DNA from: a virus
Taxonomy: Duplodnaviria > Heunggongvirae > Uroviricota > Caudoviricetes
DNA length: 43,233 bases
Strand: one strand, 5' to 3'
Virus record (IMG/VR): IMGVR_UViG_2516143027_000009
The position numbers were made by a program, and so were the translations under genes. The notes beneath the pieces were generated by a model. That model was not told the DNA's origin, made no database searches, and saw only the letters and a list, made by a program, of their open reading frames with translations. Shown one piece after another: positions 3,362 to 18,056 of the stretch. Position 1 is the first letter of the stretch. Each line of letters starts with the position of its first letter.

Positions 3362-3388
3362 CCCGCAAAATATTGCGGGCTTTTTTTT
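3362..3388 (+). terminator. Rho-independent terminator, plus-strand orientation, overlapping tailspike stop
   Basis: Hairpin CCCGCAAAATATTGCGGG followed by T8 on the plus strand; the minus-strand reading lacks a U-tract. Confidence 0.5.
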
Positions 3389-6300
3389 AACGTTCTTCCA
3401 GAGACTGAATCCGCTCTTTTATCTTATCCATTTCTCTGCGCTGCCATGCCGCCTCGATATAGAATAAGAGATCAGGTCTGACCCCCCATCTAGATCCTGC
3501 TGGCGTTATTTCAACGCGCTCAATGATGTCTTCCATTACCATCACTGGATTATCATCCTCATCAACAATGATGCTCCCTTCATTATCAGTCAGCGGCATT
3601 TCCCTTTGGCCAGTAATGACGTCATCATATACTGCGGGATAATCGTCATAGCAAAGAAAGGCATAGCGGCATGTTGTGCTTTCTTCTTCCATGAGTCCGT
3701 GAGAAATAAGAACATCACGAAGTTGCTGCGCGATTACACCATGATGTATCCTCGCCCCTTCTTCCCCCTTTATAGCGACAGCGTTCAGCCATTTATAAGC
3801 GATATACCTGACGTCACCCCAGGCATCCAGCAATGCTTCGTCAGGAGAGACCGGCTCTGTCTTTAATGTTCCGTCACTGGTAACCACAGGATTGGAGCCA
3901 AGATAAACTGTCGAGAACCTGTTTCCCGGACCACCAAGAGCATTTACATTATCAAGATAAGGTTTAACATCTCCGTTCTCAAAAAGATGTTCGAGTGCGT
4001 TATATACCGCGCGACGTGGAGTACTGCTTCCGGAACCATGCAACGTTATCATTGCACCATCTGCTGAAGACGTTGTTTCACCGCCGCTAACGATTAATCT
4101 CTGAGCGGTAACATCATCAGACGGTACTTTCTTCGCAATAATGGCGTAATTACCCTCAAGTTTGACTTCCGCGCGAACTTGTCCTGATGTACCTGCATGG
4201 ACAGTCAGTGACTGGACGGCAACATCATCTGTGAAATCAACGGGTACAGGAACCGTCCTCACGCCTGACGTCGACATAAAAGTAGGAAGCGTTCTGTTAG
4301 GAGTGGCTCCGTAGACAAAATCCCTTGAAACAAATTCTTCCTGTTTAATTTTCACCCTGAAACAATACAAATCAGCCGGGTGACCATCGTGAACATAAGG
4401 ATATTTTCTGTTGTTATCCCCTATGCTCCATGGGTTTAGAAAGTCTTCCCCACCGAAAATGTAGTACAGCCAGTTGTCTTTGATACAAACTGAACCAACA
4501 CCAACCGCAGAGTTAACTATTCCGCCCTGATAAATCTGATCAGTAACATTAACCCACTCTACATTATCCAGACTCCACTCATTGACGTTAACTCTGGTCA
4601 TAAATGTTCTTGGATAATTTCCTGCATAACGGTTATCAGGTTCTCCTCCTTCCCACTCACCAAATGCGCGCTCACTGCCAAAAATAATCAGCTCATCGCC
4701 AACTTTGGCAAAAGGAAGGTTTGAGTGATGAACATTATTTGGGAAGCGAAGAGAATTCCATGATGTACCTAAATCAGAGCTTCTGTGCAATGAACTACCG
4801 GGTTGAGTACTTAATGTCCCCCTGGTCGTCAGATACAGAATGCCATCATAATATTTTACACATGGCTCAGATGCATTCGCCTCATATTCTGCAGGTATGC
4901 GTCTGCGAACAAAGCTACCAGGAGAACCGAAAGCATCAGAGAAATAGAGTATCCCAAGCTCGCGTGGACCAATATCACCATTATGGTAGCCAACAGCAAA
5001 ACTGTTATCGCTAATCGTCGCAAAACTGTGAATCTCAGTAACAGGAGTGCTTCCGTCAACAAAAGAAGGAATAGTTCCAAGACTGGTTTTTCTCCATGGT
5101 GACGAGTGAAATGATGTACCAAAACTCCAGTATCTACCCTCGTTATTCTGATCCACATCCTGGGTATTTTGCGTCGTAACTGTAAAAGTATTTTTATCAA
5201 TAACAGTAGTCACCGTCATATTCCCGGTAACACCTGTAACACCAGAGTTTGAGAAGTTGACAAAATCACCAGCAAATAATCCGTGATCAGTAATGCGAAT
5301 ATAAGCGACTTGCTGATTTGCTGCTTTCGTTATACCACCATAAACGCGAAGGCTGCGACTCATTGGGCGATCCCACAACTCTGCAACCTGCAGTTTATTT
5401 CCGCTCACGGTCCGCGTCTCAATTACAGCAAAAAGGCGATTTCTGACAACCCCCATACTCATGCAGTGATAGTTAACTGTGGGATAGTTTTCATGTAAAT
5501 CTGTAAGCCATTCCGGCGTTGTCCAGGTCTTCCCGTCATCTCCTGAGCGAACCCATGCAACATGGAGGTTATTTACACCATGGCGGTCTCCAGCCATAAA
5601 AGGCGCATAGATGACATTGTCATATACAAACGTTTTATCCTGCGTCCAGGCGTTGTACCACGGTGTATCTGTAATTTTAAATAACTCTCCCTGGATAAAA
5701 TCTTCAGAAGCATAAAAAAGAGGCTGACCCGGTATTCTCTCAAATAAAAAACGAGCATTTTTAAATCGACTGACATCCGGAAGAGTTGATACTTTAAAAG
5801 TAAGCCCTAATCCGTCAATTTTATAACCTGGAGATGAGGCTTCAAGGCACGCGCTTATTGCAGTGGAATCGTCATTTATACCATCACCAACAGCTCCAAA
5901 ATCTTTGGGGCTAATAGCATCACGCATTTTATCCTGGAACGTTCGGTACACAGCCCCAGAACCATACTGAATAAACCAACCAAAACCACCAACAACCCCG
6001 GCGATTGCAGCATCGACATAATTACGCATTGAGCGATTATTTACAGCGTCCTGCTCAAATGATGGATCTGCAAGGTTAGAAATTTTGTTTTGCTTTGCAT
6101 CGTAATATTTTGCAAGCAAAGATGGTTTCATCAATGCACGTCTGAACCACCCAAAACATTGCTGGATCAGCATCGTCAGGTAGTCAAAGGCATCTTCATG
6201 CACTTCGGGGAAAAATTTTCCCTGATTGCGAAGGTCTGTCTCCTGCACTACATCAAGCACACGATCTATCGTAATTCGCCATCCAGTAGCAAGCGGAGAC

Positions 6301-6506
6301 GGAAGAACCACAGAACCGCCACTATAAGTGCCCGCCCCAGTTACCGTATAACCGGTATCCAGAACCAATTCTGTTACGTTTCCGTTCAGGTCAGACACCT
6401 GAACAACCAGGTCTGATTTTCTGAAAATTCGAAAAGTATACGGAAACGATGTCGTAACGCCGTTACCGGTGTATTCGTTGTGGTCAACTTCGGTTGAGAC
6501 CGTCAT
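3387..6506 (-). CDS. Tailspike or tail fiber protein with C-terminal intramolecular chaperone (peptidase S74-like) domain
   Basis: 1039 aa; N-terminal podovirus tail-fiber anchor-like segment (TGNGVTTSFPYTF); C-terminal ~150 aa resembles the self-cleaving chaperone domain of endosialidases and L-shaped fibers; position after the internal virion protein genes. Confidence 0.75.
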   Translation of the reverse strand: MTVSTEVDHNEYTGNGVTTSFPYTFRIFRKSDLVVQVSDLNGNVTELVLDTGYTVTGAGTYSGGSVVLPSPLATGWRITIDRVLDVVQETDLRNQGKFFPEVHEDAFDYLTMLIQQCFGWFRRALMKPSLLAKYYDAKQNKISNLADPSFEQDAVNNRSMRNYVDAAIAGVVGGFGWFIQYGSGAVYRTFQDKMRDAISPKDFGAVGDGINDDSTAISACLEASSPGYKIDGLGLTFKVSTLPDVSRFKNARFLFERIPGQPLFYASEDFIQGELFKITDTPWYNAWTQDKTFVYDNVIYAPFMAGDRHGVNNLHVAWVRSGDDGKTWTTPEWLTDLHENYPTVNYHCMSMGVVRNRLFAVIETRTVSGNKLQVAELWDRPMSRSLRVYGGITKAANQQVAYIRITDHGLFAGDFVNFSNSGVTGVTGNMTVTTVIDKNTFTVTTQNTQDVDQNNEGRYWSFGTSFHSSPWRKTSLGTIPSFVDGSTPVTEIHSFATISDNSFAVGYHNGDIGPRELGILYFSDAFGSPGSFVRRRIPAEYEANASEPCVKYYDGILYLTTRGTLSTQPGSSLHRSSDLGTSWNSLRFPNNVHHSNLPFAKVGDELIIFGSERAFGEWEGGEPDNRYAGNYPRTFMTRVNVNEWSLDNVEWVNVTDQIYQGGIVNSAVGVGSVCIKDNWLYYIFGGEDFLNPWSIGDNNRKYPYVHDGHPADLYCFRVKIKQEEFVSRDFVYGATPNRTLPTFMSTSGVRTVPVPVDFTDDVAVQSLTVHAGTSGQVRAEVKLEGNYAIIAKKVPSDDVTAQRLIVSGGETTSSADGAMITLHGSGSSTPRRAVYNALEHLFENGDVKPYLDNVNALGGPGNRFSTVYLGSNPVVTSDGTLKTEPVSPDEALLDAWGDVRYIAYKWLNAVAIKGEEGARIHHGVIAQQLRDVLISHGLMEEESTTCRYAFLCYDDYPAVYDDVITGQREMPLTDNEGSIIVDEDDNPVMVMEDIIERVEITPAGSRWGVRPDLLFYIEAAWQRREMDKIKERIQSLEER

Positions 6507-7838: not shown

Positions 7839-7929
7839 ATTTACATCGCACTCCTCTTGTGCCATAGTAATCGGGCACTGGCAAAATCCAGTGCCGGGAT
7901 TGGCGTCCCGGGTTACTAAGTGGCGCATA

Positions 7930-7951
7930 CCACGCCAGACGTGGTTTTTTT
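7930..7951 (+). terminator. Intrinsic terminator inside the 5' leader of the BRO-domain antirepressor gene
   Basis: Hairpin CCACG-CCAGA-CGTGG followed by T7; about 150 nt upstream of the 8108 start codon. Confidence 0.45.
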
Positions 7952-8107
7952 ATGCGTTAAGCACAGCTATATCCGAATTATGGTGGGCTGGGCAGGGGTC
8001 CGAAAGGACGCCGGTACCACTTAGGCCGGTACGCCAACCTTGTCCAGTTCACCACCAGTAATTGGCGTTGCGGTGGTGATTAAAATCACTAAGTGGAGAT
8101 AACCACC

Positions 8108-8818
8108 ATGGCTAATGCTCAAACTTCCATCTTCAAATTTGAATCTGTTAACCCTATCCGTTCCATCATTATCGATGGCCAACCATGGTTTGTAGCCCAA
8201 GACGTTTGTAGTGCGCTGCGTATCCAAAACGTCACCCAAGCACTTGAAAAACTGGATGATGATGAAAGGTCTATGTTCAACATAGGGCATGAACATCGTG
8301 CAATTTTTGACAGCCGAGTAAAAGAGATCAACATCATCTCCGAGTCAGGCCTCTACACACTGATCCTCCGCTGCCGCGACGCAGTGACACCAGGCACTAT
8401 CCCCTACCGCTTTCGTAAATGGGTTACAGGTGAGGTTCTTCCTCAGATCCGCCGCACCGGAAGTTACATTAAAAACTCGCTCCCGCAGGAAGAACGCATA
8501 AAGATGGTTGCCGACCAGGTAGCCAACGCCACGGCGTCAGCAGTAATGCAGGCGATGAAGATAGAGAACAAAACCTACAGTGCCCCACTGAAGCCCGGCT
8601 ACCGTAGCCTGATTCATTCGCCGTCTGGTGTTCTCGGCCTGACGGAGAACTCACTGCTGATGAATCTGCTGAACCAGTTACAGGAAGACGGGCACGACGT
8701 ATCGGGCGCGGCGGCGGAACTGACCACCATGTTCTGCTACATCGTCGGTGTGAGCAAATGCCTGCGTGATATCCAGACCCACGCGGAGTACATCAACGAC
8801 AAGGCAGGGTTCTTCTGA
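8108..8818 (+). CDS. Antirepressor-like protein, N-terminal BRO-N domain fused to the shared C-terminal module
   Basis: N-terminal region typical of the BRO-N family (IFKFE...IDGQPWFVAQDVCSAL); RBS AAGTGGAG before ATG 8108; C-terminal 80 aa near-identical to the 9930 and 41299 products. Confidence 0.7.
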   Translation: MANAQTSIFKFESVNPIRSIIIDGQPWFVAQDVCSALRIQNVTQALEKLDDDERSMFNIGHEHRAIFDSRVKEINIISESGLYTLILRCRDAVTPGTIPYRFRKWVTGEVLPQIRRTGSYIKNSLPQEERIKMVADQVANATASAVMQAMKIENKTYSAPLKPGYRSLIHSPSGVLGLTENSLLMNLLNQLQEDGHDVSGAAAELTTMFCYIVGVSKCLRDIQTHAEYINDKAGFF

Positions 8819-8840
8819 CGGCGGCGGCACAGGGACGTGC
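8576..8840 (+). repeat. Copy A of a ~260-bp near-identical repeat (3' end of BRO gene plus about 20 bp after the stop)
   Basis: Near-identical to 41706..41970 (direct) and 9906..10160 (inverted); estimated over 95% identity by eye. Confidence 0.8.
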
Positions 8841-8889
8841 CTTTAAATAATTCTGTACAGATTGCAGACTGGGAGTGAATAGCGTACTA

Positions 8890-8904
8890 TTACCTCAAGG
8901 GTAA
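8890..8904. promoter_or_regulatory. Operator-like palindrome TTACC-TCAAG-GGTAA (copy 4)
   Basis: Sequence match; about 60 bp upstream of the 8964 gene. Confidence 0.5.
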
Positions 8905-8963
8905 GAAAGCATTTTTAATCTTCCCTTCAAAACGCGTCCTGTAGCCAAACATGGGAGGACGAA

Positions 8964-9596
8964 ATGAGAACAAATACAACAAGAAAAGCGATGCCATACA
9001 TTATCCCAGAAGCAGATTTCGATAGAAAACTGAACATGTCTGAGAAGAACACTAGTCACACCGAAAGCTACTTAGCGAAAGGTGTGGTTGATTTCGTTCT
9101 TCCGGGATTCACAACACCTTATGGTTATCGCCTTGTAAAATCTTGTAATGGCGATCATTACAGAATGATTACTACCAGCGATACTCCAGAAACGGTGTAT
9201 GCGGTTAAGTTAATCTTTCGGGAAGATATCGTCGAAGCCAAAAGAACATGTACGCAGATCATGGTATGGCGTACGCCTAATGTTATTCATGACCGTGCTG
9301 TTCATGGTTTGCCTCAGATTTTTTTTCAGTTCTTCCTAGAGCAATATGCGATCGTTGTATCTGATGAGCAACAAACAATCGATGGGAGAAGATTCTGGGA
9401 AAGAATGATTTCTTGGGCTATAAACACCCCGGGATATAATGTATACGTTTCAGATGGCTCTGAAGAAGATAGACCTCTTAGCTTCATGACATCATGGGAT
9501 GATTTCTATAGCCAGTGGGCTGATTTCTGTTGGGGCAGTGATAAAGATGTGCATACCCACAGACTACTGGTTATAAGCAAAGATAAACTGCATTAA
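8964..9596 (+). CDS. Hypothetical protein (accessory gene, no recognisable motif)
   Basis: Strong RBS GGGAGGA before ATG; 210 aa; lower GC than neighbours; own terminator; lies between the inverted repeat copies A and B. Confidence 0.6.
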   Translation: MRTNTTRKAMPYIIPEADFDRKLNMSEKNTSHTESYLAKGVVDFVLPGFTTPYGYRLVKSCNGDHYRMITTSDTPETVYAVKLIFREDIVEAKRTCTQIMVWRTPNVIHDRAVHGLPQIFFQFFLEQYAIVVSDEQQTIDGRRFWERMISWAINTPGYNVYVSDGSEEDRPLSFMTSWDDFYSQWADFCWGSDKDVHTHRLLVISKDKLH

Positions 9597-9600
9597 TAGA

Positions 9601-9622
9601 AGCCCGCAGCGCGGGCTTTTTT
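9601..9622 (+). terminator. Rho-independent terminator after the 8964..9596 gene
   Basis: Hairpin AGCCCGC-AGC-GCGGGCT followed by T6. Confidence 0.65.
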
Positions 9623-9694
9623 GTGGACGAAACAAAAGTCAGTGCTACACTCATTGACGCCACATTGAGGTGGCTTATAGATGGAAATTTCACA

Positions 9695-9856
9695 ATGAAA
9701 AAAGCATTTGCTGCACTGTTCGTTTTGTTGTCTCTGGTAGCTTCAACTCAGGCCTTTGCCGGTCGTTGTCAGCACGACAGCGATACTGCCGCTGACGGCT
9801 CCCGCTGCGGTGGGCGTTCTGCGGATTCCCGCCCGGGTGGCGGTGGCATTCGTTAA
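9695..9856 (+). CDS. Small secreted Cys/Gly-rich peptide (hypothetical)
   Basis: 53 aa from Met MKKAFAALFVLLSLVASTQAFA with a signal peptide; promoter-like TTGACG..TATAGA upstream; weak RBS. Confidence 0.35.
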   Translation: MKKAFAALFVLLSLVASTQAFAGRCQHDSDTAADGSRCGGRSADSRPGGGGIR

Positions 9857-9879
9857 AAACAAGGCCGCGAAAGCGGCCT
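9855..9879 (-). terminator. Rho-independent terminator of the ant transcript
   Basis: On the minus strand: hairpin AGGCCGC-TTTC-GCGGCCT followed by TGTTTTT. Confidence 0.55.
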
Positions 9880-9905
9880 GTGACATGTCACGCTAGTTTC
9901 GTTTT

Positions 9906-10160
9906 GCACGTCCCTGTGCCGCCGTTCTGTCAGAAGAACCCTGCCTTGTCGTTGATGTATTCCGCGTGCGTCTGGATATCACGCAGGCATTTGCTCACAC
10001 CAACGATGTAGCAGAACATGGTGGTCAGCTCCGCCGCCGCGCCCGATACATCGTGCCCGTCTTCCTGTAACTGGTTCAGCAGATTCATCAGCAGTGAGTT
10101 CTCCGTCAGGCCGAGAACACCCGACGGCGAATGAATCAGACTGCGGTAGCCTGGCTTCAA
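9906..10160 (-). repeat. Copy B (inverted) of the ~260-bp repeat
   Basis: Reverse complement matches copies A and C, including the post-stop segment. Confidence 0.8.
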
Positions 10161-10868
10161 TGGATAACCATAACATTTTGTCTGTGTTTTAATTGCCTCA
10201 CGAAGCGCATCTAACATCTTGACTGCCACTTCATCATTCTCTGATGCAGATCCAGCAGGGAGATACTCCCCTTCAAGCGGAACCCGAGCAACAAGAGACA
10301 ACGCTTCGGCAAATTGATCTTCACCAATTTCTTTGTACGAACAGCCAAAATGAGATTTCAGTGACGACCACATGGTGATCATCGCCTTAGCCTGTTTTTC
10401 TTTTGGCAGAGACTGACCGCGACTCATGACGAGTTGTTTAATGGCTTCCTGCTGTTCAGTTGTTATTTTACCCGGCAACGCCTTTTTAGCTTTGCGTGGG
10501 TTAACCACATGGCCTTTAGTCCAGTACTCGTAGAGCACATCGTCACACTCTTCCTGATACTGGATTACCTTGTCGCGGATTTCAGGGCGGACTTTGTTAG
10601 GGCTGATGCTGTTCAACCAAGCTGCCAATTTTCGTAAAGCCATACAAATCATGGCTTGCACCCCACCGGCAGAAGGTATGGTGATTTCCACCATACCCTT
10701 CGAGAAGCGTTGAGAAATCTTCTTATGTTGAGATTTCCAGTCTAGCCCCATTCCCTCAACGATAGGTTTCATTGGGGTATACGGTTCGCCGTTGTGATTG
10801 ACAACATAAAGCTCTGCGCCGTGGAATGGCACGTTGATAGTAGATACTGCTGTTGCTATACTCGTCAT
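9930..10868 (-). CDS. ant: Antirepressor Ant-like protein (P22 Ant N-terminal-like domain plus shared C-terminal module)
   Basis: N-terminal FHGAELYVVNHNGEPYTPMKPIVEGMGLDWKSQ resembles the P22 antirepressor N-domain (from memory); located downstream of an Arc-like gene with a divergent Mnt-like gene, as in P22 immI. Confidence 0.65.
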   Translation of the reverse strand: MTSIATAVSTINVPFHGAELYVVNHNGEPYTPMKPIVEGMGLDWKSQHKKISQRFSKGMVEITIPSAGGVQAMICMALRKLAAWLNSISPNKVRPEIRDKVIQYQEECDDVLYEYWTKGHVVNPRKAKKALPGKITTEQQEAIKQLVMSRGQSLPKEKQAKAMITMWSSLKSHFGCSYKEIGEDQFAEALSLVARVPLEGEYLPAGSASENDEVAVKMLDALREAIKTQTKCYGYPLKPGYRSLIHSPSGVLGLTENSLLMNLLNQLQEDGHDVSGAAAELTTMFCYIVGVSKCLRDIQTHAEYINDKAGFF

Positions 10869-10942
10869 GTCGTTAATTCCTATACGTAGTTTTACGATAC
10901 TGAAGCCCTGACGGTCTGGCCACCGTGGGGCTTCGCTGTTTT
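10869..10942 (+). ncRNA. Candidate sar-like antisense RNA (antisense to the ant RBS and arc 3' end)
   Basis: Plus-strand promoter TTGATA-17 bp-TATACT at 10834..10862 inside the ant 5' end; hairpin 10902..10934 followed by a T-rich tract gives a predicted transcript of about 70 nt. Confidence 0.4.
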
Positions 10943-11108
10943 ATGCCACGCTATTCTTCTCACCAGTGAGTCCATACACTTTCCTCAGCTGATAGATAAT
11001 CTCTGTATTGAACTTTCGGCATTCTTTTTCGCCATTTCTTTCAATAGCTAACTTCACATCGTCCGGAAAACGAACTCGTCGTTGACACATCTCTTTTGCT
11101 TTTTGCAT
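10941..11108 (-). CDS. arc: Arc-like ribbon-helix-helix repressor
   Basis: 55 aa from ATG 11108 with RBS AAGGAG; motif RVRFPDDVKLAIERNGEKECRKFNTEIIYQL matches the Arc/Mnt RHH pattern. Confidence 0.65.
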   Translation of the reverse strand: MQKAKEMCQRRVRFPDDVKLAIERNGEKECRKFNTEIIYQLRKVYGLTGEKNSVA

Positions 11109-11228
11109 TTCATATCTCCTTAGCCCCACCGTGGGGCAAAATAATTGTCACACCGTGCGTCATTGATGTCAAGCACACGGTGAGGCATACTTCAATCATT
11201 GCAAGTAACTCAATATTTGGTGAAGAAC

Positions 11229-11660
11229 ATGAGCAGAGAAGATCCACAACTAAGGATCAGACTTCCCGTCGAAGTAAAAGAAAAAATAGAAATTTCTGCA
11301 AAAGCCAATAAGCGATCAATGAACGCTGAAATAGTACAACGTCTTGACACCAGCTTTCTGAAAGATATTCATGAAGATGACGTAATTTCTGCTTATGAAG
11401 CAAAAATCATTGCAAACAATGCACGACATGAAATATCAAATATTATTTTCAAAAGAACCTTTAATGAAATTAATAAGAAAATAACACTTGGACATACAAG
11501 TTTTTATATAAACCTTAATGACCTTGAACTGGAATCACTTGCAGATAATGATTACCAGATCATCTTTGAAAAAACATTTAATAGGCTCAATGAACTAGGT
11601 TACATCATCTGTGAAAACTCATGGGATGCAGATGGTTTTGGAATTGAAATACCTGAATAG
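11229..11660 (+). CDS. mnt: Mnt-like ribbon-helix-helix repressor with a C-terminal extension
   Basis: N-terminus MSREDPQLRIRLPVEVKEKIEISAKANKRSMNAEIVQRL closely parallels P22 Mnt; divergent from arc-ant; AT-rich. Confidence 0.65.
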   Translation: MSREDPQLRIRLPVEVKEKIEISAKANKRSMNAEIVQRLDTSFLKDIHEDDVISAYEAKIIANNARHEISNIIFKRTFNEINKKITLGHTSFYINLNDLELESLADNDYQIIFEKTFNRLNELGYIICENSWDADGFGIEIPE

Positions 11661-11749
11661 GAAGAACAAAAGGCGTGTACATATTACACGTCTTTAATAC
11701 AATTGAAAAACGCCACATTACTGATGTATGTTACAACAAGGAGCGATAT

Positions 11750-12314
11750 TTTGAAAACCATATCTATATTAAAGGTTGCATTAGGCGTCGCTATTATTTT
11801 GACTCTCTCAATATTGTTTTATTTTTACCACAAACAAACTGCTATTGCTCTTGATAGTCACGCGGCAAACTCATTTTTCTCAGAGTACATAGTGCCGCTA
11901 TCAGGAAGCGGTATAACAAATAAATATACTGACTATGACATCAAATATGGAATTGATGATGGGGAGACTATTGTATTACATGTAATCATTAAAAACCTAA
12001 TGACAGTAAATAAAAATACAGACTTCAACGATAAAAATACAATACATCACAACAACAGCAAAACATTAATTTCTTATAGTAGCAACATCTATACGGATAA
12101 ATACCTAAAATACATATCAGAAGATACAATAAAAGAAACCCGCGAAAAGTTAAAAAACATATATTGTGCATCCGGCAGTTTTCACAAATTATCGCCGCAA
12201 GAGCGTTTATTCTACGAAGCAAGAAAACAACGTAAGTCAATAATATTACATTATTATGCTGATTCAGGGGAGACACTCATATTTAATATTGGGGTTTCCC
12301 CTGAATCATGCTAA
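11750..12314 (+). CDS. Single-pass membrane protein, candidate superinfection-exclusion protein (sieA-like position)
   Basis: AAGGAG RBS 7 nt before a TTG start (alternative starts ATG 11724 or TTG 11703); N-terminal TM helix; very AT-rich; lies between mnt and the ejection-protein genes. Confidence 0.5.
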
Positions 12315-12325
12315 AGGTGTTTAAC

Positions 12326-13438
12326 TCACCGCATCACCGGATCCACTTGGTTTATTAGTGGCGCAATCCAGAACAGGTTATTGCCGGGTATCAGGGTTCG
12401 GACATTATGCACAATACGATCACCGGCATCACCATTCAACACTCCTGAGGTCACATCAATGATGCTATCCGCAAGACCAAATGACGGTCCGAATAGAGAT
12501 CCTACGAATCCACGACTGGCATACCTGGACTGTGTGCCAGTGCCAAATAAAGCCCCCAGCCCAACAGCACCACCAGTCGCCTTTTCAGCCATGTTGTTAT
12601 ATTCCATCAATGGCCCAAGAATACCGGATCTATCTATACCCTCAAGCACCAGCTTCTCTGGTGACCAGTCAACATTTTTCCCTTTCGATGCTTCTTTAAG
12701 CGCATAGACCAGTGAGCCAAGAGCAATCTGAAATGCAGTGCCATAATAAAATTGCGCAGTTCCTTCCTGTAACCCACCAAGTAGCGCACGGTTGTATGAA
12801 GCCGTTGTGAATGATTTAAACTGAAATATCGTTCGCCCCATTGGAGTACTCGCCCATAAAGGTGTGTCACCAATACCGGGGGTGATGATAGTGTTATTAA
12901 CGTCTTTCAGAACCGCTGACTGGAATACTCCGGCAACGTACTGATCGTCCCATTTATCAAAGTTACCAATGTGCCATCCATCAATTACCTCACCATGTTT
13001 CTCGAACTCACTGCGAATACGCGCAGCCATATTGTCGTTGATACCGAGTTTTGCCATGCGACGTGCAGAAAACGCACCAGACAAAATACCGTCTGACGTG
13101 AGCATTCCGTTCATGGATTTGTTTATGTCATTAAATCGATCCATGAGTGTCAGCTTGCCGAAGGCATCAGTAATTCGCTCCATTCCTGCTTCGACTGCTG
13201 TTGTCCTGGAAGAACTGTCAACAAGATCACCAATTGCACGAGAACGTGAATGTAGTACAGTTTCCAATCCAATCCCCATCTTCAACATCTCTTCTTTGCT
13301 GGCCTTAAATGCCGGTGATTGGGATATCTGAGAAGCATAGCCTTTCATGGAGTTACGGAAACCATTAACCATAACCCCTCTGGCCAGATCTGGAATAGCT
13401 GATACTGTCATTCCACCGAGTTTGGTCGTGAAGTTCAC
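12326..13438 (-). CDS. Internal virion or ejection protein
   Basis: 370 aa, Gly/Ser-rich, last gene of the internal-protein cluster; position by analogy with T7-like gene order. Confidence 0.55.
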   Translation of the reverse strand: MNFTTKLGGMTVSAIPDLARGVMVNGFRNSMKGYASQISQSPAFKASKEEMLKMGIGLETVLHSRSRAIGDLVDSSSRTTAVEAGMERITDAFGKLTLMDRFNDINKSMNGMLTSDGILSGAFSARRMAKLGINDNMAARIRSEFEKHGEVIDGWHIGNFDKWDDQYVAGVFQSAVLKDVNNTIITPGIGDTPLWASTPMGRTIFQFKSFTTASYNRALLGGLQEGTAQFYYGTAFQIALGSLVYALKEASKGKNVDWSPEKLVLEGIDRSGILGPLMEYNNMAEKATGGAVGLGALFGTGTQSRYASRGFVGSLFGPSFGLADSIIDVTSGVLNGDAGDRIVHNVRTLIPGNNLFWIAPLINQVDPVMR

Positions 13439-15339
13439 ATCCCGCAGAAAAGCGCCAGCACGAACAAAAACGAAGACGGGTCATCAGGCATACCATATGT
13501 ACCAACAAGACGATCGCGTAATGCTGTTATGTCTCTGAGATCATTTGCTCTTGATTTTGAAAGTCTGGACTGTTCTTTCCGTAATTCCTTTTCGTACTTT
13601 CGCATTAATGAATCGAGTTTACCCTGAGGAACAACTTCACCATTGCTCTCATAACGTGCTTTCAGATTTGCCACACTTTCGTCATATTTCGCCTTTATTT
13701 TTTCAGGCACTTCCCGTAACAGACTGTCATATTCGTCCTCAATTAATTGCAGACGCTCTGTCATAGTTCGTTTGCCAAATGTTCTCGTCAACTCAATTTC
13801 TGCTGCCGCTTCACGGATATGACGTTGTAGAACGTAATTCACATCACTTTCGAGATAATCCCTGATAAGACTATCAGGCACATTTAATGTTCTTTCTTTC
13901 GTACTACCTGCGGCTTTTACAGAAAATACGCTGACAAAATCCTGTGGAACCTTAGCACCAGTAATTTTATTAATTACGATATCCGCTGCAATTTCAGCAT
14001 CCTCAGGATCCAGTGTTTTATTGCCTCTCGACCACCAGTCAACCAAAATACGTCGAAATTTATCGCGTTCACTGATTATTTTTCCAACTTTATATATACG
14101 TGGGAAATAGCTTGCCTGGCCTAATGCTTTCAGTTCTTCATCTGGCGGCAATAAACCAAGCTTTTGCATTTCAACCTTCACCCGATTTAATACAGTTCGC
14201 ATCGCCTGCGCCGTTTCCTGAACAACAGGATTAGCATGCACATCACCGCTTCGCATAGCATTCCCAACCTGCTGACGAAATGAATCAAAACTCATGTCAC
14301 CACCATCAGCTTTATACTTTGCGTATGCCTGTTTATTTCCGACAACAACAGCAGCTTCTTCACGCTGCCATCCACGTGTACGGGTTTCTACAGCTACCGG
14401 TGTTTCAATCCCCCTTTCATTTCCTTTAAGGGTGAAATTATTTTCGGCTAACTCCAGCGTTGTTTTTCGCACTGTCTTGGACGGAGACTCCATTAACCTT
14501 GTCAAAGGAGTAAGATAGCTCCCTGCTTTCCATGCAGCCTTTCCAACCACCCCACCGGAAACAGGGGTTAAATCATCCAGAGTCGCTGTATCAATTTTCA
14601 TAGCACCAACACTACCACCATCAGAAAGCGAAGCGGCAGCCCTGTCAGTCGCTGATGTAATGCTCATATTATCAAGAGCATCAGCAACCTCACGCGTGGC
14701 TGCAGCCCGGACGGATGGCGAAAGCGCAACACCAGCACTGGCAAACACGCCGCTCATCATCGCACCCGCTGCAATGTGAGCGGCACTTTCACCCCATGAG
14801 CGTGTTATTTGCTGATTATTCAGCACAACCTCGCTTAATGCTGTACCGGCTGCACCAATCGCAATCTGTGAGCCAATACGCGCCAGTGCCCCTCCTTGAG
14901 CACCGGGGATAAACATTGACGCAACAGTAACCGGATCCATTCCCGCAGCAATACTGGCAAGGGTTCCAACTACGCCAGCATCAGACAATAAACGTCTGTC
15001 TTCATTTTCATCATCTATCTGCTGCTTAATCCACGCCGTTTCCTCTGGCGATCGGGAATCTGCAAATTTCGCCCCCCAGTATTCATAACCGTGCAACTCA
15101 TTTTTATCAGCATATGGGTTATAACCTTCGACCGGTTCAAACTGTCTGGCTGGTCGGAAAAAACCAGCCAGAATATTGTTCTGTCGCATTGCAGCCCCCC
15201 ATACGGAAGGCTCCGGTGGCAATGGCTCAGGATTAGCCCCTTCCGGAAGGGCAACATCAAACCCAGTTTGTTCCGGCAAAACATTACCTGACGGGATCAG
15301 TCCGTTATTAAGATCTTCAGCTTGTGCATAAACTGGCAT
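13435..15339 (-). CDS. Internal virion or ejection protein
   Basis: 634 aa, contiguous with the neighbouring internal virion protein genes on the minus strand. Confidence 0.55.
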   Translation of the reverse strand: MPVYAQAEDLNNGLIPSGNVLPEQTGFDVALPEGANPEPLPPEPSVWGAAMRQNNILAGFFRPARQFEPVEGYNPYADKNELHGYEYWGAKFADSRSPEETAWIKQQIDDENEDRRLLSDAGVVGTLASIAAGMDPVTVASMFIPGAQGGALARIGSQIAIGAAGTALSEVVLNNQQITRSWGESAAHIAAGAMMSGVFASAGVALSPSVRAAATREVADALDNMSITSATDRAAASLSDGGSVGAMKIDTATLDDLTPVSGGVVGKAAWKAGSYLTPLTRLMESPSKTVRKTTLELAENNFTLKGNERGIETPVAVETRTRGWQREEAAVVVGNKQAYAKYKADGGDMSFDSFRQQVGNAMRSGDVHANPVVQETAQAMRTVLNRVKVEMQKLGLLPPDEELKALGQASYFPRIYKVGKIISERDKFRRILVDWWSRGNKTLDPEDAEIAADIVINKITGAKVPQDFVSVFSVKAAGSTKERTLNVPDSLIRDYLESDVNYVLQRHIREAAAEIELTRTFGKRTMTERLQLIEDEYDSLLREVPEKIKAKYDESVANLKARYESNGEVVPQGKLDSLMRKYEKELRKEQSRLSKSRANDLRDITALRDRLVGTYGMPDDPSSFLFVLALFCGM

Positions 15340-18056
15340 TATTTAGATCCCCACGAAAAGTAATCTTTAAATTTGTCCATACGTTCGTTATGCAGGCGCT
15401 GATACTGCTCATCCAGAGCGCGATGCTTGTCTTTGAAGTTTCGTATAGCCTGTCCACGCATAATTTCTTCCTGCTCGTACTGCTCCCGTTCCTGCTGCAT
15501 TTTCTTATAAGGTTCCCAATCTTCTAGTGATGGTTCCCAACGCATAGGACGCCCATGTTTGTTATAAAACGGCTGGACCCGATCGATGCCATTTTCATCC
15601 TTAGTTCTTACCATAATGGCGTAATCACCATTACGAGGTGTTAACACGTCAGGGGTTATGAATAATTCTCCATTAATACGACTCTCAGGGGTTTTTGTCT
15701 CAACTACAGGAGCATTACCTGACGTGATCCCAAGCAACGTCGGACTGGTTGTTATAATCTCTTTGCGCTCACCGTACATCAGCCGTTCTTTTTCAGCTTT
15801 CCACTGCGCCGCCTGCCAGCCTGACGGCCCATATTGATAAAGCGCCTCCGGTGCATATTTCATAAACTGCGCTTCTCCGTTAACCTCGCTGATACTCCAG
15901 GTGCGGGCTATCTGCTGGTTGGTCATTTGCTTCGCTACGTCAGCGTTACCACCAGCAACGCGGTAGTTAATGTCATACAGCGTCTGATAGTCATTACGGA
16001 ATCTAGCTGCTTCCGGCGTCTGGTCATCCGCAGACGGATCCCAACGGAACCACTGCGCCATATTGCTGACAGCAGAATTCATCGCCTTGCTGCGATTATT
16101 TTTGTACTCTTTTGAACTCTGCGTTGATGCCAATTGAGCTTTAAGAGCATCGGTCTGGTTGTACGTCAGGTTCTGCGCCTGCTCGATAGCCGCATCAGCA
16201 GACATGCCAGAATCTGTTAGTTGCTTAACAGTCAGATAAAAACCCTGCATATCCTTCGGCATATTTCCAATAGATGCATTGTCTGTTTCATATAACCGAC
16301 TAAACAAATTCGCTGCATTTTTAACCACTTCCTGATTGCTGGATCTGGATACTGCTGAAAGCTGCGTGATGACCTGCGAAGGCATGATGCCAGTCTGAGC
16401 CACAAGCCGAACAACCCCATCATGAGTGGAGGCATCATTAATACGAAAGTTCTGCGCCATTTCTGTGTAATCAGCAGCTTTCTGCATTGATTTGTTGCTT
16501 GGGTCTAATTTTTCACCTATTGTCAGCGCCTCATTGAATCTGCGTGAATCACGTTGCGCCTGAATTGCTTCATTTGATCGCTGAAGCAATGCAGACAATT
16601 TTCCGTAAGCATCGAGTTTTAACGCATAGTGAGGATCGTTAACCTCAGGCTTCACTTTCTGCATTTCTTCTTGCTGCTGAGAAGGAGGTAAATACTGAAT
16701 TGCCTGGAATATTCTCGCGTTATCAATCGCTATATCCAGTTGATTGATTATTTTATCTGCATTTTTTCCATACCCCCTGATGATAGTCTCCTGAGCCGGT
16801 ATATAATCTGGAACCTCACCGTTATATAGCTGGGCCATGGTGTTATTAATAGCTGGCTCAAGCTGTTCTAATATTAACTTCCTTTGCTTTTCTATCTGAC
16901 TATTAGCAAGGTTATCTATTTGATAAATAGTCAGCGGATCCATTCCAGTTTTATTTTTTCTATATCGGGAAAGCCACCCTTGTGTTTCTGATGGAAGATT
17001 TCGGATAAATTCTTCTTCTGATATTTCACCTTTACGTGGATCACCGACTTTGGCGATCAGTTTATCCACGTTACCCATCCCCCAGTTATATGCTGCTCCG
17101 GTCAATATTTCGGAGCCGTACTTACCATACAGTTGATTTACATAGTCACTGGCGAGCATTTCATGCTGTTGTTCGTCCGTAGGGTTGTATTTAACGCCAC
17201 GCTTGGCCGCCAGTTCTTTCCCTGTGCCCGGCATTAACTGGTATTTCCCCTGGGCTCTCTCTCCAGAAGATGTTATCGGTCCTTCAAGAAGACTACCATC
17301 AGGATTAAAATGTCGATCACCTGATTCAACAAGGCGTATGGCACGCATGTCCATGCCTCCAGAATCATTTTTCTGAAACAGACCATTTAGCCATCCTTCT
17401 GGATTGGCAGCGGCATAATTCTTCGCCCGCATTTCTGTGGCACGGCGATCATCACTTTCTATTTCTTCCAGAATGCGTTCTTGTGACCATCCCCTGGCAG
17501 CTCCATATCTAGCAATGGCTACCATTCTGGAATTTCTGGCTAAAGTGGCAGTTTGCGGGTCATTCCAGGCATCCGCTTCATTTTGTATCCATAATTTTCT
17601 CGTTGCCTGATATTGCTCATCTTCATAGGCATTTGTCTGCCCTATCTCATGTCTGAGAACTCCAGTACTGAACTGAATTTTCTGTGTTCTGGCTTGTTGC
17701 AAAAACATATTTCTTGCTGCTTCATCAGTCAATGAAGCAGCTATTTCTTCCACATCCTGATCAAATCCAGATATGTACTCTTGCCCCTTACCAATCGCAT
17801 TTTTGCCTTGTTGTGCATAAAAACCGGTTTGAGGGTTATAAAGACGTTCATTGCTGCGCTGATTAAGCTGAAGGATGGCATCCTGAGACAATGCAACATT
17901 CGCTTTCTGCCTGGCTTCACCATATGCCACCGCATACTGATCTGCGACATTCGCCAGCACCTGACCTGCTTGAGGAACATCGAAGATCTGAAAACCACCG
18001 GTTTGCACACCACGACTTTGCACCTGGCGTCCGGATGTAGTAGGAACAACAGGCAT
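15339..18056 (-). CDS. Internal virion protein with lytic transglycosylase (SLT-like) domain
   Basis: 905 aa; segment ESGDRHFNPDGS...GERAQGKYQLMPGTGKE resembles the SLT catalytic region; position equivalent to T7 gp15/gp16. Confidence 0.65.
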   Translation of the reverse strand: MPVVPTTSGRQVQSRGVQTGGFQIFDVPQAGQVLANVADQYAVAYGEARQKANVALSQDAILQLNQRSNERLYNPQTGFYAQQGKNAIGKGQEYISGFDQDVEEIAASLTDEAARNMFLQQARTQKIQFSTGVLRHEIGQTNAYEDEQYQATRKLWIQNEADAWNDPQTATLARNSRMVAIARYGAARGWSQERILEEIESDDRRATEMRAKNYAAANPEGWLNGLFQKNDSGGMDMRAIRLVESGDRHFNPDGSLLEGPITSSGERAQGKYQLMPGTGKELAAKRGVKYNPTDEQQHEMLASDYVNQLYGKYGSEILTGAAYNWGMGNVDKLIAKVGDPRKGEISEEEFIRNLPSETQGWLSRYRKNKTGMDPLTIYQIDNLANSQIEKQRKLILEQLEPAINNTMAQLYNGEVPDYIPAQETIIRGYGKNADKIINQLDIAIDNARIFQAIQYLPPSQQQEEMQKVKPEVNDPHYALKLDAYGKLSALLQRSNEAIQAQRDSRRFNEALTIGEKLDPSNKSMQKAADYTEMAQNFRINDASTHDGVVRLVAQTGIMPSQVITQLSAVSRSSNQEVVKNAANLFSRLYETDNASIGNMPKDMQGFYLTVKQLTDSGMSADAAIEQAQNLTYNQTDALKAQLASTQSSKEYKNNRSKAMNSAVSNMAQWFRWDPSADDQTPEAARFRNDYQTLYDINYRVAGGNADVAKQMTNQQIARTWSISEVNGEAQFMKYAPEALYQYGPSGWQAAQWKAEKERLMYGERKEIITTSPTLLGITSGNAPVVETKTPESRINGELFITPDVLTPRNGDYAIMVRTKDENGIDRVQPFYNKHGRPMRWEPSLEDWEPYKKMQQEREQYEQEEIMRGQAIRNFKDKHRALDEQYQRLHNERMDKFKDYFSWGSK

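Follow-up and report, generated by a model that had tools for sequence, protein, structure and literature searches.

A long Mnt-type repressor and an exported protein beside the ejection-protein gene of a TL-2011b-like Escherichia coli prophage: two modules and a candidate for superinfection exclusion

What is encoded by the conspicuously AT-rich stretch at positions 11229–12314 of a 43,233-nucleotide viral sequence (IMG/VR record IMGVR_UViG_2516143027_000009, Caudoviricetes; the whole stretch of DNA is called the window below), and could it protect a lysogen against further phages? A preliminary description of these positions, made without database searches, had recognised a Mnt-like repressor followed by a membrane protein in the position that the superinfection-exclusion gene sieA occupies in phage P22, and had suggested an exclusion or abortive-infection function. 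The finding is real: the island consists of a gene for a long Mnt-type repressor and a gene for an uncharacterised, lineage-restricted, exported moron protein. By analogy, the latter may confer superinfection exclusion, acting in the periplasm at the DNA-delivery step. This idea is reasonable and the best available hypothesis, to which we assign a probability of about 40%; it is not a surprise.

The sharp decrease in guanine plus cytosine (GC) content over about 1.1 kb was confirmed. The island has a GC content of 0.327 (32.7%) compared to a window mean of 0.481 (48.1%; standard deviation 0.036 for segments of 1086 bp); this is the window's minimum for segments of that length, more than four standard deviations under the mean. 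Just 0.2% of the segments were equally low, all of them overlapping the island. Its two genes, both on the plus strand (Table 1), showed values of 0.326 (long mnt) and 0.324 (exported protein), and the flanking genes 0.488 (ant) and 0.466 (internal virion protein).

The acquisition of both genes as a single island, as proposed in the preliminary description, could not be upheld. Each of them is widespread without its partner, and because their distributions are separate they appear to be two independent modules side by side, not one acquired unit. More than 260 full-length relatives (clusters) of the long Mnt were found in Enterobacterales prophages, the majority without the exported-protein gene; in Enterobacter siphophage prophages, the long mnt is divergent from arc-like and antirepressor genes and a gene of the exported-protein family is absent. 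Compared to the temperate phage TL-2011b, the mnt gene of the window exhibited 24 nucleotide differences and the exported-protein gene 3, and this roughly tenfold unequal divergence points to recombination between them. The common AT-richness is a property of each module and not a sign of joint acquisition. The island was present in 36 of 5,426 complete E. coli genomes, Shiga toxin-producing (STEC) and avian pathogenic (APEC) strains among them.

The exported-protein gene begins with TTG at 11751 and not at 11750 as given previously; this start is used in the RefSeq annotation of an identical sequence and is preceded by GGAG at 11740–11743, while an in-frame ATG is found at 11727. The hydropathy profile revealed a single hydrophobic segment in residues 1–28 (a stretch of ~18 residues, longer than in the relatives) and a hydrophilic remainder, in agreement with the single-pass protein with a large extracytoplasmic domain described before. 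The N-terminal segment may be an uncleaved signal anchor or a signal peptide cleaved after AIA (residues 31–33). Relatives of ~50% identity carry textbook signal peptides (MKKLIPLLLIFPFIASA and MRILFPLLIMFPFTAFA, both with a predicted cleavage before ST), and the conserved domain is therefore placed in the periplasm. This domain comprises residues ~46–187 (~140 residues) and contains the conserved blocks Y-[IV]-x-P, Y-x-x-x-Y-G-x-D, L-x-x-x-Y-C, K-x-I-x-x-x-Y-Y-D, and P-x-S-C in the family alignment. The two cysteines that are invariant in the alignment, C139 and C187, probably form a periplasmic disulfide.

No Pfam, NCBIfam, or PADLOC family matches the exported protein, but it is a member of PHROG 8033. 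This family is of unknown function, and 12 of 12 aligned relatives matched it and no other PHROG. A word-based search of 5.8 billion proteins gave five clusters, and an exhaustive profile search of 1.84 billion representatives gave 17 members, all of them short single-domain proteins; the named members originate from Escherichia, Serratia, Superficieibacter, Morganella, and Klebsiella and are all labelled hypothetical. A single distant member used as query against IMG/VR found no match. The exact window protein occurs on 767 contigs. The reading frame was intact in all 17 IMG/VR loci from which the gene was extracted (8 distinct alleles), and the ratio of nonsynonymous to synonymous polymorphism (pN/pS) was ~0.2 over ~45 synonymous changes in the better-sampled subgroup, which argues for a functional gene under purifying selection. 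The closest E. coli alleles differ at few positions, mostly nonsynonymous (3 of 3 and 6 of 8), too few to claim positive selection. Identities within the family are 28–51% compared to 50–74% for the adjoining ejection-protein gene, indicating that the exported protein evolves faster.

Several weak leads from the homology and structure searches were rejected. A ThsB/TIR-like match in PADLOC-DB v2 (15 bits, E 0.005) was discarded because three relatives did not show it, Pfam did not support it, and the protein is exported. A match to iota-carbonic anhydrase (E 2e-06, family profile against PDB sequences) was not significant, its score being made up of three weak hits to repeats (12, 14, and 1 bits, all with E >0.4) in a stretch resembling a beta-hairpin. 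The fold lead to AspS/PA3611 (PDB 4ftf, 3npd) is kept as a weak note only, as hhalign against the E. coli pilotin YghG found nothing; a lipobox together with sequence or fold similarity to AspS/YghG, as expected for an AspS/PulS-type pilotin, was not found. Weak matches to Pfam DUF3836 and Imm42 were noise. The structure model of the exported protein was built on three sequences only, and Foldseek against BFVD returned no match at E ≤ 0.001.

The sieA position noted in the preliminary description proved more constant than could be seen from the window. The window and all nine other loci read (L003, L010 with its variants L011/L012, L013, L014, L015, L016, L041, and L043) show one arrangement: the family gene and the last large internal virion protein gene of a TL-2011b-like podophage converge and abut or overlap, with a gap of 0–30 bp or overlapping 3′ ends in the nine loci. 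The upstream neighbour varies, being the immI region, an Arc gene with a KilA-N antirepressor, Bro-N with HicAB, a zinc-ribbon gene of PHROG 6762, or the small terminase gene. Homologues of the ejection protein with 50–74% identity flank every family member whose neighbouring gene is complete. In 7 of 7 loci measured (the window and six others), the family gene lies 10–19 GC points under its ejection-protein neighbour, the same contrast as between P22 sieA (0.337) and gene 16 (0.499).

The same slot can hold other genes. The end of the ejection-protein gene was found in 46 complete E. coli genomes, 36 of which carry the island. Among the inspected genomes lacking it, TUM9803, MS8345, and MS 196-1 have a protein of 175 amino acids (aa) with one N-terminal transmembrane (TM) segment (WP_000451652.1, PHROG 21690), and UTME-10 has a 98-aa protein with two TM segments (WP_001555166.1, PHROG 21905). 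These alternative occupants (L019, L021, L022, 4448–4975 / 2448–2975; L020, 4680–4976) are unrelated to the exported protein, uncharacterised, and AT-rich (GC 0.35–0.37), next to ejection-protein gene ends of ≥95% identity. The gene that follows the last core protein in epsilon15 and phiV10 codes for a tiny product with two hydrophobic stretches; neither phage has a PHROG 8033 member. Because of these occupants from PHROG 8033, 21690, and 21905 and from epsilon15 and phiV10, the slot beside the ejection-protein genes is regarded as one that is repeatedly filled by small envelope proteins of unrelated families.

Many E. coli genomes of sequence type 131 (ST131) have kept no more of the internal virion protein gene than a 45-bp copy of its 3′ end, with 97.8% identity (L050, 4001–4045, equivalent to window 12332–12376), in unannotated DNA beside the gene of WP_001555166.1. 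The prophage in question has different structural genes (DUF919 protein), and the copy looks like a boundary sequence that moved with a moron cassette. A further observation concerns the Superficieibacter/Morganella pair (L013, 6236–6958; L015, 5354–6004), in which the PHROG 8033 member is immediately preceded by a PHROG 6762 gene of the same orientation, the two overlapping by 4 nt in L015. The PHROG 6762 product has a Lar-like/endonuclease VII-like zinc-ribbon C-terminus, and its gene may be a second recurrent neighbour. In Serratia-type members (L010, 7493–7558; L013, 7491–7519), the 3′ ends of the family gene and of the convergent internal virion protein gene share 29–66 bp, so that the C-terminal tail of the family protein is encoded antisense to the last codons of the neighbour.

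If the exported protein is an exclusion factor, it would be made from the prophage, exported across the inner membrane, and either N-terminally anchored or cleaved after AIA33, and so end up either in the periplasm or on the outer side of the inner membrane. It would there disturb the trans-envelope conduit of ejected internal proteins (T7 gp14-like, SLT-bearing, and ~1000-aa) of incoming related phages, possibly by direct binding of the ~1000-aa protein or by inhibition of the SLT domain. This would be a functional parallel, via an unrelated protein, to P22 SieA acting on gp16/gp20 and to T4 Sp, which acts on the tail lysozyme. The data establish the structure of the gene, its export signals, its family, the synteny, the AT-richness, and purifying selection; expression in the lysogen, the periplasmic disulfide, and the target are elements of this scheme that we infer. 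The exclusion candidate of the preliminary description is favoured by position, AT-richness, the swapping of genes in the slot, and export, since an exported protein fits a block at the level of the envelope. The alternative of abortive infection is unlikely for a protein without a cytoplasmic domain.

Several results weigh against exclusion. A PHROG scan at E ≤ 1 returned phrog_8033 only, with no SieA PHROG and no PHROG annotated as exclusion, and no PADLOC defence model was matched above noise. BLASTP against P22 SieA gave an E of 0.25 over 42 residues of TM-like sequence, which amounts to no sequence similarity; the architecture differs as well. To our knowledge, the well-studied injection blockers of Gram-negative phages are never soluble periplasmic proteins, unlike some members of this family. 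The two sigma-70-like matches upstream of the gene were not above shuffle expectation and, because they are no better than chance, expression in the lysogen is argued from orientation and analogy alone. Finally, all family-bearing phages share homologous ejection-protein genes, so the conserved position may reflect co-inheritance at a moron-tolerant operon junction.

A bolder version of the exclusion hypothesis would see PHROG 8033 as a new class of periplasmic exclusion proteins, soluble or single-anchored and disulfide-bonded, that block the T7-type ejectosome of incoming TL-2011b-like podophages, and the slot downstream of the last ejection-protein gene as a general hot spot for interchangeable injection blockers of short-tailed temperate phages, of which SieA is one example. 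Such proteins could, for example, bind the C-terminal part of the ~1000-aa protein or inhibit the SLT domain of its partner. We consider this generalisation possible, with the odds clearly against it.

The main competitor, itself somewhat improbable, is a lysogenic-conversion or fitness factor that alters the host envelope and owes its position to a permissive late-operon end and to co-inheritance. It accounts well for the moron features of the gene, namely its AT-richness, its orientation opposite to the late genes, and its replaceability by unrelated genes. Homologous internal virion proteins in all carriers mean that the synteny can be vertical, and the missing defence-model match is as expected for such a factor. 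However, conversion leaves unexplained why all alternative occupants of the slot and the P22 counterpart are also small membrane or envelope proteins. Furthermore, the family is limited to one phage lineage, whereas many conversion genes have spread among prophage types, and the pilotin fold lead is weak, with an empty profile comparison to YghG.

The protein might instead serve the lytic cycle of its own phage by restraining its SLT-bearing or ejected proteins in the periplasm once infection has occurred, by tuning lysis, or by shielding newly infected cells and progeny from secondary adsorption or injection. The tight linkage to the ejection-protein operon in all loci, with 3′ ends sometimes overlapping, and the retention of the family gene beside ejection-protein genes that have diverged to 50% identity would suit such a role. 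Nevertheless, it is unlikely, as the gene is dispensable (phages with ejection-protein gene ends of ≥95% identity carry other genes in its place), is transcribed against the late operon, and is absent from epsilon15 and phiV10.

Less likely still is a co-acquired functional pair of long Mnt and exported protein, be it a sensor with its effector or an abortive-infection system resembling a toxin and antitoxin. The two genes are adjacent on the same strand, are equally AT-rich, and occur together in 36 of 36 complete E. coli genomes with the island; in addition, the family gene of L003 shares 17 nt with an overlapping Arc-domain gene. Against this stand the long Mnt in Enterobacter siphophage immI modules without the family gene, the recombination indicated by 24 compared to 3 differences from TL-2011b, and 7 of 9 other loci in which the family gene has no Arc-type neighbour. 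The Arc protein of L003 is a different one of 120 aa, and an exported protein without a cytoplasmic part would be a poor abortive-infection effector. The last idea, a nonfunctional AT-rich remnant with a chance frame, could draw on the nonsynonymous majority among the closest E. coli alleles and is effectively refuted by family conservation, as relatives of 26–51% identity from several genera share the motifs and both invariant cysteines, the frame is intact in all extracted loci, pN/pS is ~0.2 at larger divergence, and a GGAG ribosome-binding site is present.

Table 1. Features in and around the AT-rich island (positions in the window; aa, amino acids)
Feature	Position	Strand	Basis
ant, antirepressor, 312 aa	9930..10868	-	Pfam P22_AR_N, E 5.9e-45; PHROG 524 and 245 'anti-repressor Ant'; RefSeq antirepressor
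sar antisense RNA, between arc and ant	10870..10937	+	Rfam RF00262
arc-like small repressor, 55 aa	10941..11108	-	PHROG 228 'Arc-like repressor', E 1.8e-05; 'Arc-like repressor' in the TL-2011b annotation
Divergent control region, arc to long mnt, 120 bp	11109..11228	.	Promoter scan and repeats
Long Mnt-type repressor, 143 aa	11229..11660	+	Pfam Arc, PDB 1mnt, BLASTP to P22 Mnt
Hairpin directly 3′ of the mnt stop, 11-bp stem, possible weak or bidirectional terminator	11669..11695	+	Weak
Two overlapping weak sigma-70-like promoter matches	11676..11732	+	Promoter scan, 9/12 each
Exported protein, 187 aa, TTG start	11751..12314	+	PHROG 8033, E 1.4e-128 over residues 1-187/187
Last internal virion (ejection-type) protein gene	12326..15339	-	Convergent with the exported-protein gene, 11-bp gap

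The first gene of the island encodes a Mnt-type repressor, as stated in the preliminary description. Residues 2–46 match PF03869 (Arc, a ribbon-helix-helix (RHH) fold) with 54.5 bits (cut-off 20.4; E 1.1e-14), the Mnt repressor structure 1mnt was the top match among solved structures (E 3.4e-07), and in BLASTP residues 1–86 (11229–11486) spanned the complete 83-residue P22 Mnt (E 3e-14, 32% identity). Because residues 1–86 cover the entire Mnt, the extension amounts to ~57–60 residues, an extra alpha/beta module at residues 87–143 (11487–11657); the ~90 extra residues mentioned earlier are obtained only when counting from the end of the RHH fold. In the region of the tetramerisation helix (Mnt residues 54–83), the BLASTP alignment contains few identities, and hhalign supports residues 1–41 only. 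The AlphaFold2 model has a mean predicted local distance difference test score of 81 (~90 over residues 60–140) and predicts a long helix of residues 55–86 packed on the extra module.

Among E. coli alleles, the pN/pS of the long mnt was ~0.04–0.25. With the C-terminal 90 residues as query, a search of limited sensitivity returned the same family and no other architectures, and PADLOC-DB v2 gave no match for the protein. A literature search by accession number found nothing, and no title or abstract among the papers mentioning TL-2011b dealt with these genes. Most likely, the long Mnt keeps the antirepressor operon shut in the lysogen, and for the 57-residue C-terminal module a role in oligomerisation or in binding a partner is the most likely one. 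We regard the protein as an ordinary repressor with an extra domain that is common and, as far as our searches show, undescribed. The hairpin after mnt combines a minus-strand terminator-like match with an RNA fold whose z-score is just −1.4; P22 has a terminator after mnt.

A complete P22-type immunity-I (immI) circuit of mnt, divergent control region, arc, sar, and ant is present, and the 143-aa protein is for this reason best read as its Mnt. The sar RNA gave a full-length match to RF00262 (44.8 bits, gathering score 43, E 3.6e-07), and the annotated P22 genome has sar at the equivalent place. A promoter scan of the control region found a near-consensus, Pant-like promoter on the minus strand facing arc-ant (TTGACA at 11172, a 17-nt spacer, and GACAAT ending at 11144). 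The palindromes GCCCCACCGTGGGGC (11123–11137) and TGTCACACCGTG / CACGGTGAGGCA (11146–11157 / 11176–11187) span this promoter, so that the arc-mnt spacer (11120–11190) holds two palindromes and three CACSGTG motifs across it. The palindromes are candidate Arc and Mnt operators, judging from the layout of P22. Four of the six CACSGTG sites of the window lie within 10921–11182; the reading of this cluster as four operators was dropped, as the copy at 10921 is in the sar terminator hairpin, and the operator claim is now confined to the intergenic palindromes. In the arc-ant transcript, GCCCCACCGTGGGGC would moreover fold into a 5′-terminal hairpin. The 5′ end of ant is ~90% identical to that of the K1 phage CUS-3, at a CUS-3 feature annotated 'boundary sequence'. 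Overall, the full immI regulatory circuit has been transplanted into a podophage that is not P22-like.

The carrier can be described as a TL-2011b-like temperate podophage integrated in E. coli, judged from sequence comparison. Window bases 9617–13465 agree with a prophage of E. coli APEC E18055 without differences, and TL-2011b is 99.3% identical over 10800–12600. The structural genes are of a podophage type with T7-like internal core proteins. The RefSeq record of the identical sequence lists three genes beside the island: two upstream ones, for a core protein of the T7 gp14 family and an SLT-domain protein of 905 aa, and the internal virion protein gene, whose 1004-aa product is labelled hypothetical. 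BLASTP revealed no similarity of the 1004-aa protein to epsilon15 gp16/gp17 or P22 gp16/gp20. Its gene is split into open reading frames (ORFs) of 634 and 370 aa in the window and is an intact 1004-aa coding sequence in E18055 and TL-2011b. The break is a 1-nt deletion near 13466 (window 13460–13470), with A5 instead of the A6 of E18055 and TL-2011b (CGAACAAAAA[A]CGAAG), and is the sole difference between the window and E18055 over 12300–15400. It is either a homopolymer sequencing error or the mark of an inactivated, defective prophage.

Elsewhere in the window, the 1039-aa tailspike gene (3387–6506, minus strand) has an endosialidase beta-propeller domain according to the annotation of the related E18055 record, and with such a tailspike the phage would be a K1-capsule-specific temperate phage. 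Positions 7919–9616 differ from E18055 and TL-2011b, both of which carry a YafO-family toxin gene and a small gene upstream. In place of this region, the window contains a 210-aa ORF (8964–9596; PHROG 1349, unknown function), followed by a gene for a 55-aa secreted or membrane-associated moron protein (9689–9856; PHROG 14503).

If the exclusion hypothesis is true, the exported protein would represent a second, unrelated solution to the problem solved by P22 SieA, in a different podophage lineage with T7-type core proteins, and it would act from the periplasm rather than within the inner membrane. It would open a way to study the assembly of the DNA conduit from ejected core proteins and would support the locus beside the ejection-protein genes as a predictable place for injection blockers. 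Given its occurrence on 767 contigs and the presence of the island in STEC and APEC strains, the protein could also influence the typing of such strains by phages or their treatment by phage therapy. Among Enterobacterales prophages the long Mnt is frequent, with an unexplored domain added to what is otherwise a textbook repressor.

The long Mnt resembles P22 Mnt (1mnt, PF03869) in its ribbon-helix-helix N-terminus, in an alignment over all of Mnt, and in its place opposite an arc-sar-ant operon, from which it diverges across a shared control region rich in palindromes. It differs in length (143 compared to 83 aa) and in the weak similarity over the tetramerisation helix.

P22 SieA spans the inner membrane several times, carries the motif FxRYPxEAxxFNK on the cytoplasmic side, and blocks DNA injection via the ejection proteins of genes 16 and 20, to both of which escape mutations map; sieA always adjoins gene 16, and SieA itself comprises three types that are <30% identical to each other (PMC10883804). 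The locus of the window shares its gene order with annotated P22, that is, ejection gene, convergent small gene, mnt, and divergent arc-ant. In both phages, the small gene is an AT-rich prophage gene compared to its neighbour, encodes an envelope protein, and is dispensable and replaced by unrelated types in relatives. However, P22 SieA returned phrog_7745 in the scan that gave phrog_8033 only for the exported protein, and it contains the motif FGRYPGEANGFNK, which is absent here. Moreover, it has at least three hydrophobic segments compared to one N-terminal segment followed by a periplasmic domain, some relatives being simply secreted, and the phage described here has T7-type internal core proteins and not P22 gp7/20/16. 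The exported protein is not a SieA, and the analogy is positional and architectural.

A different group of known systems consists of the single-anchor or lipoprotein injection blockers, namely T4 Sp and Imm, lactococcal Sie2009, and streptococcal Ltp, which act on the DNA-delivery proteins of incoming phages. No PHROG so annotated matches the exported protein at E ≤ 1. The likeness is by architecture only: these blockers are small phage- or prophage-encoded proteins with one N-terminal membrane segment or lipid anchor and, like the exported protein, place their functional domain outside the cytoplasm.

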